Source: Candidatus Omnitrophota bacterium
GTDB taxonomy: Bacteria > Omnitrophota > Gorgyraeia > Gygaellales > Profunditerraquicolaceae
Length of the DNA: 64,000 nucleotides
Assembly: GCA_041309005.1 (NCBI GenBank)
Contig: JBFZAN010000075.1
Location: 1,621-65,620 of the forward strand
Reading direction: 5' to 3'
This document shows, one piece after another, positions 2,839-50,869 of the stretch (position 1 is the first letter of the stretch; the number at the start of each line of letters is the position of its first letter). A model generated the notes under the pieces. It searched no databases, was not told where the DNA came from, and was given only the letters and a program-made list of their open reading frames with translations. The translations under genes and the position numbers were made by a program.

Positions 2839-3120
2839 ATGGAAAGTAATAGAGAGCAGGGTTTAGCCGAAATTCGTAAGAAGCTAAAGCAACTTCTGGT
2901 TACCAGCCTGTCGCTTGAAGACATTAAGCCGGAGAATATCAAAGACGACGAAATTCTTTTTGGCGAAGGGCTGGGCCTGGATTCTTTGGATGCCGTTGAA
3001 ATTGTGGTTTTGCTGCAGCGGAATTTCGGCCTGGAAGTAAAAGACATGAATCAAGGAAAAAAGATTTTTTATTCCGTAGATACTCTGGCGAATTATATCT
3101 ACGAAAACCAAAAGGTTTAA
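2839..3120 (+). CDS. Acyl carrier protein
   Basis: 93 aa, acidic, LGLDSLDAVEIV phosphopantetheine attachment motif (DSL). RBS GGAGGAG 8 nt upstream. Confidence 0.8.
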   Translation: MESNREQGLAEIRKKLKQLLVTSLSLEDIKPENIKDDEILFGEGLGLDSLDAVEIVVLLQRNFGLEVKDMNQGKKIFYSVDTLANYIYENQKV

Positions 3121-3129
3121 CATTCGCGC

Positions 3130-4296
3130 TTGATGTATACTCCAGTTGTTATAAGCGGCATGGGCGCTCTATGCGCCGCGGGCAAAAACGTCGAGGAGAT
3201 ATTAGCGTCGTTTAGCGCAGGGCAGCGCGCTTTGCAGCCACCAATGCTTTTTCCTACCGCGCTGGATTATCCTGTATTTGAAGTAAAAGGATTCTCTTGT
3301 CCAACGGGCGTTATGCGTACGCTGGCGTTGGCATTTGCGGCAGCTGCTGAAAGCTTGCGGCACGCCGGTCTCCCGCAGAGTTTGCGCGGCATGCGCACAG
3401 GGGTGTGTCTGGGCACCACTGTAGCAAGCCAGCTTAATGACGAAAATTGGTATACTGAATATAAAACTACCGGTTCTGCGCCGCAGGAACCAGTTGATAT
3501 TTATTTGAAAGGAAATATTGCCGAGGCATTTACGGAAAAATTTAATATCAAGGGGCCGGCGCTGACAGTGGTAAATGCCTGTTCATCCGGAGCCGATGCC
3601 ATAGGCGTTGCTTTAAGTTGGTTACAAACCGATTTATGCGATATCGTGATTGCGGGAGGAGCGGATGAAATGAATCATGTGCCTTACTGCGGCTTTGGGG
3701 CTTTAGGAGTAACGAGTCGGCAACCGTGTATGCCTTTTGACCGTGACCGTAACGGGCTTAATCTCGGGGAAGGCGCCGGGATACTCATCCTTGAGAAAGA
3801 AACGCATGCCCGTAAACGAGGGAATCGTTCGATACTATACGTTACCGGATACGGCGCGGCTGCAGATGCTTATCATCTGACCGCGCCGCGACCAGACGGA
3901 ACTGGCTTAGAGATAGCAATTAGCAAGGCATTGCGGCAGGCGGGTATACAGGAGGCTGATATCGCGTTTATTAACGCGCATGGCACTGCCACGCGCGATA
4001 ACGATAAGGCAGAAGGCAGGCTTTTTAAGCGGATGTTCGGTCCGGATGTAAAGTTTATCTCAACTAAAGGTTTTACCGGCCACGCGCTGGGTGCCACCGG
4101 CGCAATGGAAGCCATATTTACAGCGCTCGGCTTAAGAGAAGGCTGGGTTCCGGCTAATATTGGATTCAGCCAGGTTGATGAAGAGATCGGTATTGCTCCG
4201 GTCAGGGAAAGAACAAATATTACAGGCGAGCATGCGCTCTCAACGTCTTTAGCATTCGGCGGCAACAATGCCGCACTCATTATTGAACGAAAATGA
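3130..4296 (+). CDS. Beta-ketoacyl-ACP synthase (FabF/FabB-like elongating KS)
   Basis: Active-site Cys in VVNACSSGADAIG. His-His pair (INAHGTAT, GHALGATGA). C-terminal FGGNNAALIIE typical of KAS I/II. Confidence 0.85.
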   Translation: MMYTPVVISGMGALCAAGKNVEEILASFSAGQRALQPPMLFPTALDYPVFEVKGFSCPTGVMRTLALAFAAAAESLRHAGLPQSLRGMRTGVCLGTTVASQLNDENWYTEYKTTGSAPQEPVDIYLKGNIAEAFTEKFNIKGPALTVVNACSSGADAIGVALSWLQTDLCDIVIAGGADEMNHVPYCGFGALGVTSRQPCMPFDRDRNGLNLGEGAGILILEKETHARKRGNRSILYVTGYGAAADAYHLTAPRPDGTGLEIAISKALRQAGIQEADIAFINAHGTATRDNDKAEGRLFKRMFGPDVKFISTKGFTGHALGATGAMEAIFTALGLREGWVPANIGFSQVDEEIGIAPVRERTNITGEHALSTSLAFGGNNAALIIERK

Positions 4297-5039
4297 TAAA
4301 TATTAACGGGATAGGCATCATTTGCAATTATGGCAGGGGGATTGACGCGGTTAAGCTCGCATTAGAGAATGGGCACACGCATGATATTTTCACTTCCAGA
4401 GTAAACGACGATATCCTTAAAGATAAAATCTTTTCCAAAGACGCCCGCCGCAGCGACCGGTTTGATCGAATGGCCGTCCTGGCAGCGCTTGACGCCATAT
4501 CTTCTTCCGGAATTAACAGTGAAGTTGAAACGAATAACATCGGCATAATTCTCGCTACCGGCTTTGGCCCGCATGTGACTACATTCCGCTTTTTAGATGA
4601 TATTCTTGCCTACAAAGAGCCTGATGTCTCTCCGATATTATTCTCGCATTCCGTGCATAACGCAGCTGTTTCTTATATTTCTTCGCTTGCCGGAGTACGC
4701 GGGCCGACTTTGACGGTTACCAGGTTTTTTCGCGCGTTTGACGAAGCGCTCTCACTCGCCAATGCATGGCTGGAGCAAAAAAGAGTGCGTTTCGTCCTTG
4801 TGGGAGCTGTTGATGAGCAGAGTAATAGTATGGAATATATTACAAAAACTAAGGCCGGAATTACGCTTGGCGAAGGGAGCGTATTTTTTGTTGTGAGCAA
4901 AGAAAAGTGTGCTAAAATTTATTTGAAGGTGGAGCCGCTCACAAGCCTAAGTGCTGCGGCAACGGCACCTATTCAGAGCGCGTTTAATTCTGCGGCAGCA
5001 ATTATACTAAAAATTTATAATAAAGATACACCCGACTGA
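4293..5039 (+). CDS. Ketosynthase N-terminal-domain-like protein lacking catalytic cysteine (chain-length-factor-like partner)
   Basis: ATGA overlap with the KS gene. Thiolase-fold N-domain-like sequence (GIILATGFGP...AGVRGPTLTV), but the position of the nucleophilic Cys reads TRFFRAF. Only 248 aa. Confidence 0.5.
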   Translation: MININGIGIICNYGRGIDAVKLALENGHTHDIFTSRVNDDILKDKIFSKDARRSDRFDRMAVLAALDAISSSGINSEVETNNIGIILATGFGPHVTTFRFLDDILAYKEPDVSPILFSHSVHNAAVSYISSLAGVRGPTLTVTRFFRAFDEALSLANAWLEQKRVRFVLVGAVDEQSNSMEYITKTKAGITLGEGSVFFVVSKEKCAKIYLKVEPLTSLSAAATAPIQSAFNSAAAIILKIYNKDTPD

Positions 5040-5050
5040 GGAGGGAAGAG

Positions 5051-5635
5051 ATGAAACAAAAATTGAATGTTTTCGCCTGCCTTACTTTTGCCTGCGCCTT
5101 GTTGATACCCGCACGTGCCTGTTATGCCGGAGAAAAAGGTACCGATAGCCCGGTTAATAAGGCCTATTATACCGCTGTGAATATTTGGGTCGAGGAAGCA
5201 GGACAAATCTTTACTACCAACTTTCATAAAGGAACGATACTTCCAATTAATACAAAAGTTAAGATTGCGGAATATAGCGGGAAGGGTTTTAGTTTTACCG
5301 ATGGAAAAGGAACTAAGTATAAAATAGTTTATATGGCAAAACATTCGAATTTGCCTGTAAAAGAAGTGTTTCAGAGATACTTCTCTGAAAAAGAAATTCC
5401 TCTTGGCAAATTCACTAGAGAAGAACGCAAGAATATTGAGGCAGGGACGATTGCCGTAGGCATGTCCAAGGATGCGGTGATTGCTGCGTATGGATATCCG
5501 CCCAGCCATCAGACGCCTTCTTTAGAGGGCAAGCAGTGGAAATACTGGCAGGATCGGGTGAGAAACTTTCTGGTGCTTTTTGATAAAGATAACAAAGTGG
5601 AAGTTCCTTCGGCTAGAAGGGAAGATATAAAGTAA
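5051..5635 (+). CDS. Secreted protein with BamE/SmpA_OmlA-like C-terminal domain
   Basis: Signal peptide MKQKLNVFACLTFACALLIPARACYAG. C-terminal GMSKDAVIAAYGYPPS...WKYW resembles the BamE fold motif. RBS GAGGAGGG upstream. Confidence 0.4.
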   Translation: MKQKLNVFACLTFACALLIPARACYAGEKGTDSPVNKAYYTAVNIWVEEAGQIFTTNFHKGTILPINTKVKIAEYSGKGFSFTDGKGTKYKIVYMAKHSNLPVKEVFQRYFSEKEIPLGKFTREERKNIEAGTIAVGMSKDAVIAAYGYPPSHQTPSLEGKQWKYWQDRVRNFLVLFDKDNKVEVPSARREDIK

Positions 5636-6127: not shown

Positions 6128-7450
6128 ATGGTTTCCCTCCCGTATTCGCCCGACAAATATTACCTGGGCGGCCTTGACTGGATAATTCACGCTCTTAATT
6201 ATCTTTCCCGGAAAGCTACCGGCTGCGGCAATTTAAGCCAGGTAATCCTGCGGCTAAGCGTGCCGCTTGACGAAGCTATCCTAAAAGAAAAACTTACCTC
6301 TTTTATGTGCCTTTTTCCTTGCGCTCAAGGATGGGTTAGCCGCGATTATAACCTCGCCCCATATTGGAAATATCCGCGCCACGCAAAGCCGGTAATTGAA
6401 TTACGCTGCAAACGTTGCCAAGACAAGGAAGAAGCGTTTGCGGTTTTATTCAAAGCAGTAAATCTTCCGTTTAAAAGCAAGCAGGAGCATGTGCGTTTTT
6501 GTTGTGTCAGGACCCCGCAGGAGTGTTATTTTTCTCTTGTGTTTGACCATCGGCTTTTTGACGCGCGGGGAGCGGAGGATTTTTTATTCCTATTTAACGA
6601 ATTCTTTTGCGGCCGTTTTACCGTGAATGGAACCGTGCGTCCGGTTCAGGCAGCCGGGCTCTCGCATTGGAAAGAAAAGTTTCTTGCCGGCAAGCGGATT
6701 AACCGCCTGTTCATCGGGCTTTCCCACGGTGCAAGTGTCCGGCATATTCCCTTACCGGATAAGGCGCAAGGCGGGCATTTTCAATTCCGCGTCCTGACTT
6801 TCGGCAAGGACCAATCGCAGGCCATTACTGATAACGCGTATAATACTGCCGGTTATCTGATGCTTGCTCCGTATCTGTTGGCCGTAAGCTTATTGAGCGT
6901 ACGCGAGTGTTTCAAAGATTATCTGCAAGATGGTTCTGATTTCTTAGTGCCGCTAAATACTGACATCCGCAAGCGCCACAGCGGATTAAAACAATTATTT
7001 TTTAATCATCTATCATTCTTACTCCTGAGAATAAAAGATAAAGATATCCGTGCGAACAAAGAGTTCATATCCGAAGTCACCCGCGCCGTGTACAGTGAGA
7101 TGTCCAGCGGCTCAACATATGACCTTGAACAGGCAAGCCTCCTGCTGCGCATTGCGCCGCTCGTGATCCTTCAAGGCATTATCGGGTCTTTCATGCGTAA
7201 GCAGGCTGTTTCATTTGCCTTTTCTTATGTTAATAATAGTTCCGGTATCCGCGATTTTTGCGGCAGCCCTTTAGAAGAAATGATCCACACGCCACGCATG
7301 GCGCTTATGTCCGGTATCGGAGTGTTCTTCACGCAGTTTGCGGGCAATATTTCGGTGACACTGTCGTTTTTGAAAGGCCTGATTAAAGAGAAGGATGCCG
7401 AGCAGTTTATGGCACAATTGGAAGAAAGATTATTAACACGCTACACGTAG
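6128..7450 (+). CDS. Hypothetical protein, possible HxxxD-type acyltransferase (condensation/WS-DGAT-like superfamily)
   Basis: Starts immediately after the ACP stop. FDHRLFDARG resembles the HHxxxDG catalytic motif. No other recognisable motifs. Confidence 0.3.
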   Translation: MVSLPYSPDKYYLGGLDWIIHALNYLSRKATGCGNLSQVILRLSVPLDEAILKEKLTSFMCLFPCAQGWVSRDYNLAPYWKYPRHAKPVIELRCKRCQDKEEAFAVLFKAVNLPFKSKQEHVRFCCVRTPQECYFSLVFDHRLFDARGAEDFLFLFNEFFCGRFTVNGTVRPVQAAGLSHWKEKFLAGKRINRLFIGLSHGASVRHIPLPDKAQGGHFQFRVLTFGKDQSQAITDNAYNTAGYLMLAPYLLAVSLLSVRECFKDYLQDGSDFLVPLNTDIRKRHSGLKQLFFNHLSFLLLRIKDKDIRANKEFISEVTRAVYSEMSSGSTYDLEQASLLLRIAPLVILQGIIGSFMRKQAVSFAFSYVNNSSGIRDFCGSPLEEMIHTPRMALMSGIGVFFTQFAGNISVTLSFLKGLIKEKDAEQFMAQLEERLLTRYT

Positions 7451-11480: not shown

Positions 11481-11677
11481 GCGCGCTCTATTATCGGCAT
11501 GCCTAAAGAAAATTCCTTATATAAAAATAGGAAAACTTGTTAAATCTGATTTAAGAGAGCTTTATGACGATAAACAATCGGGTAACAACCAGGCTCGAAG
11601 TTAGCCTTGCAATAAAAGATAAATTGTTGTAACATATTGATATATCTACGGGAAAAAGAATCAATTTTGCAGAATCC

Positions 11678-11822
11678 CTGCCTCTCCGATTATTCCCTAT
11701 AATTGAACAGAGGCGGTCTTTAGCATATCCGATAACCCGAGACCTGCCTCTTCGATTATTCCCTATTATTGAATAGAGGCGGTCTTCAGCATATCAGATT
11801 ACCCGAGACCCGCTTCTGCGCT
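11678..11822. repeat. Tandem array of ~66-nt two-hairpin units (2 full + 1 degenerate), same family as 49535-49752
   Basis: Unit consensus c(t/a)gcctctccgat-loop-ttgaa(t/c)agag(g/a)cggtct-loop-cgagac. Unit boundaries 11678, 11744, 11810. Confidence 0.8.
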
Positions 11823-11864
11823 ATGTTTTTCAGGTGAACCCCGCTTGAGGAAAAAAGTTCTTGT

Positions 11865-13196
11865 ATGAAAGATTATTTCAACGTTTTCCTATACCGCTTC
11901 AGGACGGCAGATCCGGTACGGTTGGTAGTTGCGGGATATATGTCCTATATCTTTATAGGGTTTATCCTGTTGTGCCTTCCGTTTATGCACAAAAATTTCG
12001 TCCATCCCCTGGATAATCTTTTTATCGCCACTTCCGCAGTTTCTACAACCGGGCTAACAACGGTCACGGTGAGCAACGATTATAATTTCTGGGGACAGTT
12101 AGTCATTCTTGTCCTTATCCAGTTGGGCGGTATCGGGTACATGACTTTTAGTTCCTTTGTAATTTTATCTACCAAGAAATATCTTGATGACCACACAAAG
12201 AATATCGCTCATGTTGTATTCAGTATCCCCAAAAACTTCAAAATTGAGAAGTTTATTCTAAGTGTCATCGGATTTTCGGCCGTGGTTGAAATGCTGGGAG
12301 CAATAGGGTTATTTTTTGTATTTTGGCAGGCAGGAGTGGAGAATCCTTTTTGGAAGGCTATATTCCACAGTGTTTCGGCTTTTTGCACTGCCGGATTCAG
12401 CCTGTTTCCTAACAGCTTTGAAGGGTTTTCAAATAATTTCAGCCTTAATGCCATTATTTCTGTGTTGAGCATACTGGGCGCAATGGGATTTATTGTTTGC
12501 GTTGATGTTGTGCGGCTCATCCAGGGTAAAGAAAAGCACGTTACGTTGACTACAAAGGTCATTCTTTCAATAACATTTTGGCTCCTTTTGATCGGATCAG
12601 TGTTGATGTTCCTGACTGAAATCTACGGAGGCGGGGTTGCATCACAAAACAGAATAATGTATTCATTCTTTCAAGCTATGACGGCCCTTACAACAGTGGG
12701 ATTCAATACCATCACGGTCAGCACAATGTCTAAATCAGCTATTATGCTTATATGTATATTGATGATTATAGGTGCTTCGCCGGCAGGTACCGGTGGTGGG
12801 TTGAAGACTACCACATTTTCAGCAATCTGGGGATTAATGAAAAGCGCCATCAAGGGCAATAAAAGCGTGCGCATATTAGGAGCCACAGTACCGGATGACC
12901 GGGTTAGAACAGCTGTGGCAACTTTGAGTTTTTATATATCGACCTTGCTGGTCGGAACGTATCTGCTCACTTTGACGGAGAATGGCTCGTTTATCGATAT
13001 CTTTTTCGAAGCAGCTTCTGCTTTGGGAACTGTCGGCTTGAGCATGGGCATTACTGTGGCGTTGTCAGTATTGGGAAAACTTGTAATAATCATATTGATG
13101 TATATAGGTCGTGTCGGGCCTTTGACATTCGGCATGGCATTTTATGTGAAGCCTGAGCTTATATTTGATGACGAAAAAACTGATTTGGCGGTATAA
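11865..13196 (+). CDS. trkH: TrkH/KtrB-family potassium uptake membrane protein
   Basis: Repeated M1PM2 selectivity-filter-like motifs (TTGLTTVT, TAGFS, GASPAGTGGGLKTTTF, GTVGLSMG). Polytopic. Confidence 0.8.
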   Translation: MKDYFNVFLYRFRTADPVRLVVAGYMSYIFIGFILLCLPFMHKNFVHPLDNLFIATSAVSTTGLTTVTVSNDYNFWGQLVILVLIQLGGIGYMTFSSFVILSTKKYLDDHTKNIAHVVFSIPKNFKIEKFILSVIGFSAVVEMLGAIGLFFVFWQAGVENPFWKAIFHSVSAFCTAGFSLFPNSFEGFSNNFSLNAIISVLSILGAMGFIVCVDVVRLIQGKEKHVTLTTKVILSITFWLLLIGSVLMFLTEIYGGGVASQNRIMYSFFQAMTALTTVGFNTITVSTMSKSAIMLICILMIIGASPAGTGGGLKTTTFSAIWGLMKSAIKGNKSVRILGATVPDDRVRTAVATLSFYISTLLVGTYLLTLTENGSFIDIFFEAASALGTVGLSMGITVALSVLGKLVIIILMYIGRVGPLTFGMAFYVKPELIFDDEKTDLAV

Positions 13197-13286
13197 TGTA
13201 TGTATAAGCGCTCCCATACTACGCCTGCGGTAGAGTTTTATAAGCAGGCTTGTTTCAATAGTAGGGTCCGCTAAAAGCGAAAGGGT

Positions 13287-48818: not shown

Positions 48819-48892
48819 GCGCCCATAGCTCAATTGGATAGAGCACTTGCCTACGGAGCAAGTTGTTGTTGGTTCGATTCCAACTGGGCGCA
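48819..48892 (+). tRNA. tRNA-Arg (anticodon ACG)
   Basis: Manual fold: acceptor GCGCCCA/TGGGCGC. D-arm GCTC-AATTGGATA-GAGC. Anticodon stem CTTGC/GCAAG with loop CTACGGA (U33, ACG, G37). Variable TTGTT. T-arm GTTGG-TTCGATT-CCAAC. Discriminator A. No encoded CCA. Confidence 0.85.
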
Positions 48893-48968
48893 TTACCTTA
48901 TATGTATCCGCCCGTCCTGAGCGAAGCGAGGGGCTGGGCGCATTACCTTATATGTATCCGCCCGTCCT
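48884..48968. repeat. Perfect 35-bp direct repeat (CTGGGCGCATTACCTTATATGTATCCGCCCGTCCT) x2, 50-bp period; first copy begins inside the 3-prime end of tRNA-Arg
   Basis: Copies at 48884-48918 and 48934-48968, separated by gagcgaagcgagggg. Second copy ends 6 nt before the tadA start. Confidence 0.9.
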
Positions 48969-49456: not shown

Positions 49457-49545
49457 GGAGAGGTGGCTGAGCGGTCGAAAGCAATTCACTGCTAATGAAT
49501 TGGCCTGGGAAACCGGGCCCCTGGGTTCAAATCCCAGCCTCTCCG
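49457..49545 (+). tRNA. tRNA-Ser (anticodon GCU), long variable arm
   Basis: Manual fold: acceptor GGAGAGG/CCTCTCC. Anticodon stem ATTCA/TGAAT with loop CTGCTAA (U33, GCT, A37). Long variable arm TTGGCCTGGGAAACCGGGCCCC. T-arm TGGG-TTCAAAT-CCCA. Discriminator G. Confidence 0.8.
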
Positions 49546-49752
49546 ATAATATTGCTCGTTGAGTAGAGGCGCTCTGCATCTCCCTAGGAGTCCGAGAGCA
49601 GCCTCTCCGATAATTTCAGATTGTTGAATAGAGACGGTCTGCGTCGCACCTGGTAGCCAGAGACCAGCCTCTCCGATTACTTTGCTCGTTGAATAGAGAC
49701 GGCCTGCGTCTCCTCAGGAGTCAGAGGCCAGCCTCTGCGCCATTGTTGACGC
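49535..49752. repeat. Tandem array of 64-66-nt two-hairpin units (3 full + 1 degenerate) whose first unit is the 3-prime end of tRNA-Ser; same family as 11678-11822
   Basis: Units start at 49535, 49599, 49665, 49729, each beginning CAGCCTCTCCGAT (= tRNA-Ser 3-prime 13 nt). Hairpin 2 shows compensatory changes (gctct/agagc, ggtct/agacc, ggcct/aggcc). Confidence 0.85.
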
Positions 49753-49811
49753 TCAGGCGAACCCTGACAGGCGTTATAAGCCAGGGGCGCCATGAGTTGA
49801 AGTGAAGAAGC

Positions 49812-50651
49812 ATGAACAAAGAAATAAGCACAACTAAAATAGCAATTTTCAGGAAACGAGAGATCAGAAAGGCCATTCATAACAATGAATGGTGGTTTGC
49901 GGTCGTTGATGTAGTTGCGGCATTAACAGATTCTGTCCAGCCGGATGGCTATATCAAAGATATGCGTAGGCGTGATCCGGAGCTTTCCAAAGGGTGGGGG
50001 CAAATTGCCACCCCCCTTTCAGTAAAGACGCCGGGTGGCATCCAAAAGCTCAATTGTGCTAATACGGAAGGTATCTTTCGTATTATCCAGTCTATTCCAT
50101 CCCCAAAGGCTGAGCCGTTCAAGCGGTGGTTGGCTCGGGTCGGTTACGAGCGGATTCAGGAGATTGAGAACCCGGAGCTTGCCACAAAGAGAACGAGAGC
50201 TTTATATAAGGCAAAAGGGTATAGCGATGAATGGATCGAAAAACGGATGCGAGGGATCGCTATCCGTGAGGAGTTGACTGGCCAGTGGCAGAAGCGCGGC
50301 ATAAGGGAGCAAAAGGAATACGAAATATTAACTGCTGAAATTTCAAAAGCAACGTTCGGCATGACGCCTTCTGCTTACAAAAAGCACAAGGGTTTGAAAC
50401 GCGAGAATTTGCGGGATCATATGACTGATCTGGAGCTTATCTTTTCGATGCTTGGCGAGGCATCAACGAAAGAGATAGCCGTCAATAAAAACGTTCAGGG
50501 GTTTGTAGAAAATAAAAAAGCCGCGTTTGAGGGCGGCGCTGTGGCGGGCAACGCGAGAAATGAATTGGAACGCAAAAGCGGCAAGAAAGTTATCAGCAAA
50601 GAAAATTATAAAAAGTTGCCGCAGAGTGAGAAATTTTTAAGGGGTAAATAA
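49812..50651 (+). CDS. Bro-N domain protein (phage antirepressor/DinD-like)
   Basis: N-terminal IAIFRKREIRKAIHNNEWWFAVVDVVAALTDS matches the Bro-N consensus (F..IR.....EPWF.A.DVA.AL). C-terminal KilA-C/DinD-like region. Confidence 0.6.
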   Translation: MNKEISTTKIAIFRKREIRKAIHNNEWWFAVVDVVAALTDSVQPDGYIKDMRRRDPELSKGWGQIATPLSVKTPGGIQKLNCANTEGIFRIIQSIPSPKAEPFKRWLARVGYERIQEIENPELATKRTRALYKAKGYSDEWIEKRMRGIAIREELTGQWQKRGIREQKEYEILTAEISKATFGMTPSAYKKHKGLKRENLRDHMTDLELIFSMLGEASTKEIAVNKNVQGFVENKKAAFEGGAVAGNARNELERKSGKKVISKENYKKLPQSEKFLRGK

Positions 50652-50869
50652 TAGGATAAAAGATGGCACTATTACGAACAGTCATTTCCACAAGTAGTCG
50701 GATCTCTTTGAGATGCGGGGTTCGTCTGGCGTCCACGACTACCCGATAATCTTGCTCATTCTAACACTGCAGGCGGTTTGCATAAATCGAAAGGAGGTCA
50801 TACGGCGCAGATAGCAGTTCCCACAGGCAGCAACTTCTACTTTAACGGTATCAACAAGGAGACAATCAG

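Follow-up and report, generated by a model that had tools for sequence, protein, structure and literature searches.

How does the 3′ end of a tRNA gene come to be repeated, at regular intervals and with a hairpin in each repeat, in the DNA behind that gene? The question arises in a 64,000-nt stretch of a Candidatus Omnitrophota genome (the window), where a tRNA-Ser(GCU) gene that does not encode its CCA is followed by three units of 64–66 nt, each closing with a copy of the tRNA's last 11–13 nt. Our analysis of the window and of related loci and contigs (which carry numbers such as L038) leads us to consider it probable that the repeats are an amplified tRNA-Ser attachment site (attB) of elements that a large serine recombinase (LSR) mobilises, and that the fourth copy is occupied by a recombinase-less mini-element with a Bro-N gene. 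Read in this way, the array represents a known type of hotspot in an unusual form and not a new class of RNA.

The repeats themselves are readily delimited. The 13-mer CAGCCTCTCCGAT occurs exactly at 49535, within the tRNA, and again at 49599 and 49665, whereas the copy at 49729 is degenerate (CAGCCTCTGCGCC; 10/13 matches, or 10/11 over CAGCCTCTCCG, the last 11 nt of the tRNA at 49535–49545, which form boundary copy 0). An earlier note on this DNA had described three further 13-nt copies at 64–66-nt spacing directly after tRNA-Ser(GCU). The placement of the tRNA by ARAGORN and Rfam, the spacing (64, 66 and 64 nt) and two of the copies bear this out, and only the third copy falls short of the description. 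By TRF the array spans 49534–49736 (period 65, 3.1 copies, 78% matches, score 242), and a unit-specific pattern is found five times in the window against the 0.00 occurrences expected by chance from shuffles. Contigs of one NCBI MAG and the Logan assemblies of two runs all show the identical locus, so that the array is not an assembly artefact. The features of this array (array 1), of a second one and of their flanks are collected in Table 1.

Table 1. Arrays 1 and 2 with their flanking features, in window coordinates; half-sites and the mini-element are assigned from sequence.
Feature	Position	Strand	Remarks
tRNA-Ser(GCU)	49457..49545	+	ARAGORN and Rfam tRNA, 60.5 bits (placed 49456/7-49545/6)
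Unit U1	49546..49609	+	AU-rich trailer-type linker, hairpin AGAGGC-GCTCT...AGAGC-A-GCCTCT, CCG (boundary copy 1)
Unit U2	49610..49675	+	H2 stem GGTCT/AGACC; closes with boundary copy 2
Unit U3	49676..49739	+	H2 stem GGCCT/AGGCC; closes with boundary copy 3, CAGCCTCTGCG
Putative P′ half-site, CCA-TTGTTGACGCTCAGGCGAACCC	49740..49765	+	left end of proposed mini-element; inverted repeat of 50718-50738
Bro-N leader	49740..49811	+	conserved long hairpin; minus strand holds recombinase C-terminal relic ..QGSPERQQW
Bro-N / DinD-like gene	49812..50651	+	Pfam Bro-N 7e-13; cargo of proposed mini-element
Putative P arm (3′ part of E2)	50693..50745	+	right end of proposed mini-element; half-site GGGTTCGTCTGGCGTCCACGA at 50718-50738, then CTACCCG
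Fourth, diverged unit interior, probably the displaced native tRNA-Ser trailer	50746..50810	+	alignment to U1
Orphan 17-nt tRNA-Ser 3′ fragment (GAATCCCTGCCTCTCCG)	11672..11688	+	T loop to discriminator; heads array 2
Array 2 units V1 (11689-11754) and V2 (11755-11820)	11689..11820	+	same family as U1-U3
Degenerate P′-type leader (CTATGTTTTTCAGGTGAACCCC...)	11821..11864	+	homolog of the E2-CCA-P′ leader that precedes ktrB in L035
ktrB	11865-13196		downstream of array 2 and of the degenerate P′-type leader
Decayed E2 (P-arm) relic	13205..13286	+	downstream of ktrB

The second array, which the earlier note did not contain, belongs to the same unit family and lies at 11672–11820, upstream of ktrB (TRF: 11677–11817, period 66, 89% matches). 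No tRNA gene adjoins it, and the orphan fragment at its head is identical at 17/17 positions to the 3′ end of tRNA-Ser(CGA) of L034. Its copy number varies within the species: among five MAGs compared over the array loci (99.9% identical, one 1.4-kb piece 99.4%), GCA_041309085.1 has three units and the other four have two, the extra unit being a perfect 66-nt duplicate of V1. Units thus multiply by tandem duplication, for which unequal exchange or slippage between adjacent copies would suffice, and both of its marks are found here, namely copies that lie head to tail and copy numbers that differ between close relatives. Four Logan assemblies break at one common point inside the array, a break explained by the copy-number and SNP variation that we observe. 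Unit identity is 76–89% within arrays, interior identity between array 1 and array 2 is 48–67%, and U2 is about equally close to V1/V2 and to U1/U3. Because the units of the two arrays are homologous at different loci, the arrays were not both made purely in situ, and simple in-situ duplication does not account for this homology.

Two arrays of short, hairpin-forming intergenic units within 64 kb, together with several assemblies that break inside them, might suggest dispersed selfish repeats of the REP/BIME, BOX or MITE kind that adjoin the tRNA by chance, and a BIME-like mosaic of REP palindromes had indeed been proposed earlier. The units depart from such repeats in being strictly in phase with a tRNA end, since both arrays begin at the 3′ end or 3′ fragment of a tRNA-Ser. 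All of them are direct, with neither the alternating orientation of REP/BIME palindromes nor terminal inverted repeats read in the unit interior, and they occur at the two tRNA-Ser-end junctions only, with no solitary copy. The search for the marks of REP/BIME elements (dispersed copies, alternating palindromes, a RAYT) returned just the five direct units in 64 kb, and a covariance model of these five, run with filters off, found nothing further, whether in the window or among 10 related loci. We give this explanation almost no weight.

The DNA beyond the last copy of array 1 points to integration. As had been stated earlier, a Bro-N gene lies immediately downstream of the array and no integrase is present, a tblastn search of the 64-kb window with the LSR of the P′-bearing elements (see below) having found no recombinase gene. 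The sequence that follows the last copy, CCA-TTGTTGACG..., we take to be the P′ half-site of an LSR att site, and the arm of the repeat element E2 beyond Bro-N to be the P half-site; boundary copy 3 (CAGCCTCTGCG) is the putative B side of the attL junction. P and the reverse complement of P′ agree at 18/22 positions in the window (p 0.0002, gapped alignment with shuffles) and at 12–18/22 positions over five sites (p 0.0002–0.002); a gapless inverted-repeat finder missed this symmetry because of a 1-nt indel, and the gapped alignment recovered it. In L039 both arms show a correlated change, GATGC with GCATC, which looks as expected for LSR half-sites. The P arm is known only from recombinase-less copies. 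Its position downstream of Bro-N, inverted with respect to P′, suggests that 49740–50745 is a 1,006-bp mini-element without a recombinase; a counterpart at tRNA-Asp in L039 measures 1,485 bp (3929–5413).

The comparison with relatives places the junctions precisely. In L038, tRNA-Ser(GCU) continues straight into CCATTGTTGACG / CCATTGTTGACGCTCAGGCGAACCC, the leader and Bro-N, and, compared with this arrangement, the window has exactly three units more. In L039 it is tRNA-Asp that continues directly into the Bro-N leader and gene, and in L041 E2 takes the place of the tRNA before the leader. Bro-N homologs that are 92–94% identical stand in unrelated neighbourhoods, all with the same 70-nt leader. 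At the tRNA-Ser, Asp, Arg and Glu sites and at the attP-like sites alike the junction falls after ..CCG, with no long shared core. E2..CCCG is joined to CCA-P′ in L034, L035 and L041, and E2..CCG to other sequence in the window (attR, at 50745|50746), L039 and L034; we read tRNA|CCA-P′ as attL and E2..CCCG|CCA-P′ as an attP-like junction where cassettes follow one another in tandem. Two features of LSR att sites are found here: sharp junctions with a fixed element start beside unrelated host sequences, and two imperfectly inverted half-sites around a short crossover.

The right flank of the mini-element explains what the units are made of. Alignment of U1 with the 65 nt that lie right of attR extends through the entire unit (z 5.7, p 0.0003), and in this fourth, decayed copy the H2 inner stem is lost. 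The match indicates that the unit interior is the native tRNA-Ser trailer and that the units are duplicates of the attB region. The following course of events would account for the locus. The 3′ end of tRNA-Ser(GCU) would serve as the chromosomal attB of a family of LSR-moved integrative elements, and a 64–66-bp stretch of it would have been amplified head to tail into four copies, each comprising ~53 nt of tRNA trailer and the last 11–12 nt of the tRNA. The mini-element, having lost its recombinase and retaining only the Bro-N/DinD-like gene, would afterwards have integrated in the fourth copy, its left end supplying CCA and the P′ half-site and its right end the inverted P half-site, so that the rest of the fourth unit would now lie to its right. 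As the window holds no LSR gene, we infer the mobility of the mini-element from relatives, and an LSR would have acted on it in trans. Tandem duplication of an att site does not account for an identical C>G change in both occupied boundary copies.

The link to an LSR comes from the 20-mer that follows CCA at the last copy of array 1, TTGTTGACGCTCAGGCGAAC. It is found in nine IMG/VR contigs and stands directly after a tRNA CCA (Ser, Arg or Glu) in seven of them, as it also follows a tRNA CCA in L038 and L039; over the different contigs it follows the CCA of tRNA-Ser(GGA), Ser(CGA), Arg(UCU), Glu(UUC) and Asp(GUC). The same seven IMG/VR contigs have P′ within the 3′ end of a minus-strand LSR gene of 579 aa with Resolvase, Recombinase and Zn_ribbon_recom domains (homologs in the other contigs are 80–95% identical). 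The gene is intact in 6/7 and in two collinear pieces in L055; these seven relatives carry it beside the site, and the window, L038, L039 and L041 keep a short relic only. One consideration counts against the att-site reading: as a rule LSRs are reported to target sites other than tRNA genes, the 3′ ends of which are the usual sites of tyrosine integrases (PMC8092301), and a family of LSRs that uses tRNA 3′ ends would run against this rule.

Some features of the recombinase genes deserve mention in their own right. The LSR gene at L051:1033–2772 (minus strand) has homologs in L052–L055, L058 and L059, and in L051 and these homologs the reading frame crosses its own P′ site into the antisense of the host tRNA, so that integration changes the C-terminus of the protein. 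The relic in the window reads ..QGSPERQQWRRG on the minus strand (49677–49880). A second conserved leader type, CCAT.TTTTTGGTGAAC..CGACGAGGAGG..TCCACACTAATTGTGGACGCGAACCCTA, follows tRNA-Ser or E2 ends at L034:98–170, L034:792–870 and L041:3101–3175; it has no Rfam match and, in L034, coincides in part with what is left (72 aa) of a serine-recombinase C-terminus.

With an attL junction adjoining the array, each unit might itself be the scar of a separate integration, successive elements having been almost wholly deleted with the att core left behind. The locus is a proven integration hotspot, L031 bears a different LSR at the same tRNA, and in L041 a 128-nt insert separates tRNA-Ser(GGA) from an orphan CTCTCCG|CCA copy, all of which would suit such a history. 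The junctions do not, for their P and B sides share only CCG and not 11–13 nt. No P or P′ motifs were found inside the unit interiors, which match the native trailer right of attR instead; one unit has been duplicated perfectly in tandem within the species; and three independent deletions would not leave an identical 52–54-nt remnant. We regard serial scars as improbable. The earlier suggestion of reiterated integration at the tRNA 3′ end is thereby divided: the site appears to be used, the last copy being the probable attL of the Bro-N element, and the reiteration is better ascribed to duplication. The L041 insert (2972–3110) contains a terminator-like hairpin and also a long one that is near-perfect (z −6.8); it has the topology of the window array with a different insert.

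If the units are amplified attB copies, their hairpins call for comment. The inner stems of U1–U3 read gctct/agagc, ggtct/agacc and ggcct/aggcc, all five inner-stem pairs are Watson–Crick in 5/5 window units (U1–U3, V1, V2), and two pairs are changed on both sides (G-C>C-G and U-A>C-G). The earlier note took each unit for a pair of hairpins, the second kept paired by double substitutions. Its stems are as described, and the covariation consists of the two pairs just named, with weak statistics from only five sequences (25/500 shuffles reach the observed value). The two-hairpin arrangement is only one possible fold: AGAGRC pairs with a GCCTCT either upstream or downstream, and the downstream alternative, an 11-bp hairpin with a 1-nt bulge, is the MFE fold of U1 (−24.9 kcal/mol, z −2.8), V1 and V2. 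The 5′ arm of this hairpin, AGAGG, equals tRNA positions 3–7 and its 3′ arm G65–U70, so that the 3′ arm in each unit would be a copy of the tRNA's acceptor strand. As to the strand of the hairpin, two G.U cases point to plus and two A.C cases to minus, and hence no strand can be called. A population SNP, C>T in two MAGs, converts a stem C-G into a U.G wobble. Neutral duplication does not predict compensatory stem changes, which counts against an account by tandem duplication pure and simple. The double substitutions may reflect selection, either on RNA (the trailer hairpin being a mimic of the acceptor stem) or on the structure of the DNA; they may equally stem from templated repair, which inside DNA palindromes can also give double changes. 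Our preferred guess is a 3′-trailer structure of the tRNA transcript retained by selection.

These same hairpins could mean, as the earlier note had also considered, that the units are a functional structured RNA, a series of minihelix-like mimics of the acceptor stem transcribed with the tRNA, which could be processing, stabilising or insulating modules between tRNA and Bro-N; such a role could be compatible with an origin by duplication. The compensatory changes in the 5-bp inner stem and the derivation of both hairpin arms from the tRNA speak for this, as do stems that are kept despite the low interior identity between arrays, a copy of the same architecture after tRNA-Arg(ACG), in which CGCCC + GUCCU pair with GGGGC-U-GGGCG, and genes that all lie on one strand, which makes co-transcription plausible. 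Yet the arrays have no Rfam match even at E≤10, the units have no match outside the species in pattern scans or in the 10 related loci, their folding z-scores are only −1.2 to −2.8, and the wobble and mismatch evidence picks no strand, while templated repair of a DNA palindrome offers another source of the double changes. We think a dedicated RNA function unlikely, though deserving of some weight. Over window positions 1–55500 nearly all large reading frames are on the plus strand, and for this reason the co-orientation of array and gene says little.

Searches beyond the window gave the units no wider distribution. Exact-pattern scans for the unit family in 185,579 species genomes, JGI metagenomes and IMG/VR returned no real match, the hits being chance matches, coding repeats and one CRISPR array. 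Rfam had no match to E2 either, and tRNA covariance models (RF00005 and others) matched neither the units nor E2. The nearest tadA homologs are only ~75–78% identical; in each of the three tadA relatives that we examined, tRNA-Arg, tadA and tRNA-Ser are retained and the 3′ end of tRNA-Ser is unchanged. In this comparison with related genomes, which had been suggested earlier, the array is absent at tRNA-Ser in all three, and the downstream DNA differs in each. We found no account of such arrays in bacteria in the literature, and no paper naming these accessions.

Other identities were considered and dropped. Alignment of the units as copies of the 3′ two-thirds of the tRNA was not significant against shuffles (p 0.04–0.9), and no promoter or terminator consensus sites lie inside the arrays. 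GTTRRRY-like heptamers occur in U1–U3, but reading the sequences gave no paired RYYYAAC box as in an integron attC, and the associated recombinase is a serine recombinase instead of an IntI tyrosine recombinase. A CRISPR array was rejected as the whole unit is conserved between copies, and an IS200/IS605-type hairpin element and a tRNA-primed retro-element were set aside given the serine recombinase and the inverted half-sites.

The proposed att sites resemble those of phiC31 and Bxb1 in having two inverted half-sites of ~20 bp around a short crossover, P and B sides almost without identity beyond a few bases and, in relatives, a Resolvase + Recombinase + zinc-ribbon gene beside the site. Unlike the usual LSR sites, the targets are tRNA genes of several kinds (Ser, Arg, Glu, Asp), each at its 3′ end, and P′ starts with CCA, so that the tRNA gains an encoded CCA. 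P′ also lies within the 3′ end of the recombinase frame, again a departure from known LSR sites. ICESt1/CIME exemplifies cis-mobilisable elements (CIMEs) and the accretion, in tandem, of integrative elements at tRNA sites; the short att-flanked elements without their own recombinase (49740–50745 in the window, 3929–5413 in L039) are CIME-like, and the head-to-tail cassettes joined by attP-like junctions in L034 and L035 recall such accretion. Unlike CIMEs, the cassettes here hold a single gene in 1–1.5 kb with serine-recombinase half-sites, and the 65-bp units are not elements. Partial copies of a tRNA gene are also arrayed in tandem in the trnF pseudogene repeats of Brassicaceae plastids, in which, as here, part of a tRNA with its flank is duplicated head to tail and copy number varies among close relatives. 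In contrast to these, the present array is bacterial, includes only the last 11–12 nt of the tRNA, sits on a putative recombinase docking site and keeps a hairpin in each unit. The junctions thus appear to behave like serine-integrase att sites, the cassettes like cis-mobilisable elements and the array like a tandem duplication of the slippage type.

If the amplified-attB reading is right, its bearing is threefold. Several different tRNA genes appear to be used at their 3′ ends by one family of serine recombinases, sites of a kind normally credited to tyrosine integrases, and the P′ half-site of this family begins with CCA and lies, unusually, within the 3′ end of its own recombinase frame. 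Recombinase-less cassettes of 1–1.5 kb would explain near-identical DinD-like, KtrB and zeta-toxin genes in unrelated Omnitrophota neighbourhoods. Finally, an attB amplified in tandem whose copies keep their hairpin is itself unusual and would be a natural test case for the features that a recombinase reads, and a warning to annotators that repeats of a tRNA end can be duplicates of attB DNA and need be neither integration scars nor new RNA. A bolder variant, in our judgement decidedly unlikely, is that the units are selected as working copies of the acceptor end, whether minihelix mimics or spare docking sites, within an undescribed cassette-shuttling system. As mimics, they would be RNA hairpins processed together with the tRNA; as spare sites, they would let serine-recombinase cassettes land beside the tRNA gene and not in it. 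One recombinase family would then read the T-arm and acceptor end of many tRNAs and donate CCA, and single-gene cassettes (DinD-like, KtrB, zeta toxin) would be shuttled between Omnitrophota genomes.

Several further observations concern the surroundings of these loci. The last 9 nt of tRNA-Arg(ACG) with 26 nt of its trailer (48884–48918) are repeated at 100% identity at 48934–48968, 50 nt downstream and just before tadA; this copy, the hairpin of which follows the design of the tRNA-Ser units (its CGCCC being tRNA positions 2–6), is absent from L027, L031 and L033. Homing-endonuclease genes lie 5′ of tRNA-Ser(GCU) in two relatives: a GIY-YIG gene in L038 (417–800), upstream of which the 5′ part of the tRNA is present as an interrupted duplicate, and a LAGLIDADG gene between tadA and the tRNA in L027 (5470–6260). 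The Bro-N leader hairpin (z −2.5 in the window) is conserved at L038:845–915, L039:3929–4000 and L041:3930–4000, with z about −4.5 in these three; in L038 and L039 the ribosome-binding region AAAUGAGG forms an outer helix with CCAUUGUU, a stretch that takes in the tRNA's CCA, so that translation of Bro-N might depend on cleavage at the tRNA 3′ end. Homologs of ktrB, 88–92% identical, stand in different contexts, one with E2 on both sides. In L036/L037, where ktrB is 88% identical to the window's, a 35-nt sequence, AATAATTCAGACCGTTTCCGCGGAATTCCGGGGAAG, is present on both flanks of the gene and seems to represent a further family of repeats that border cassettes; in L036 there is, in addition, a c-di-AMP riboswitch upstream of kdpA (6771–6926).
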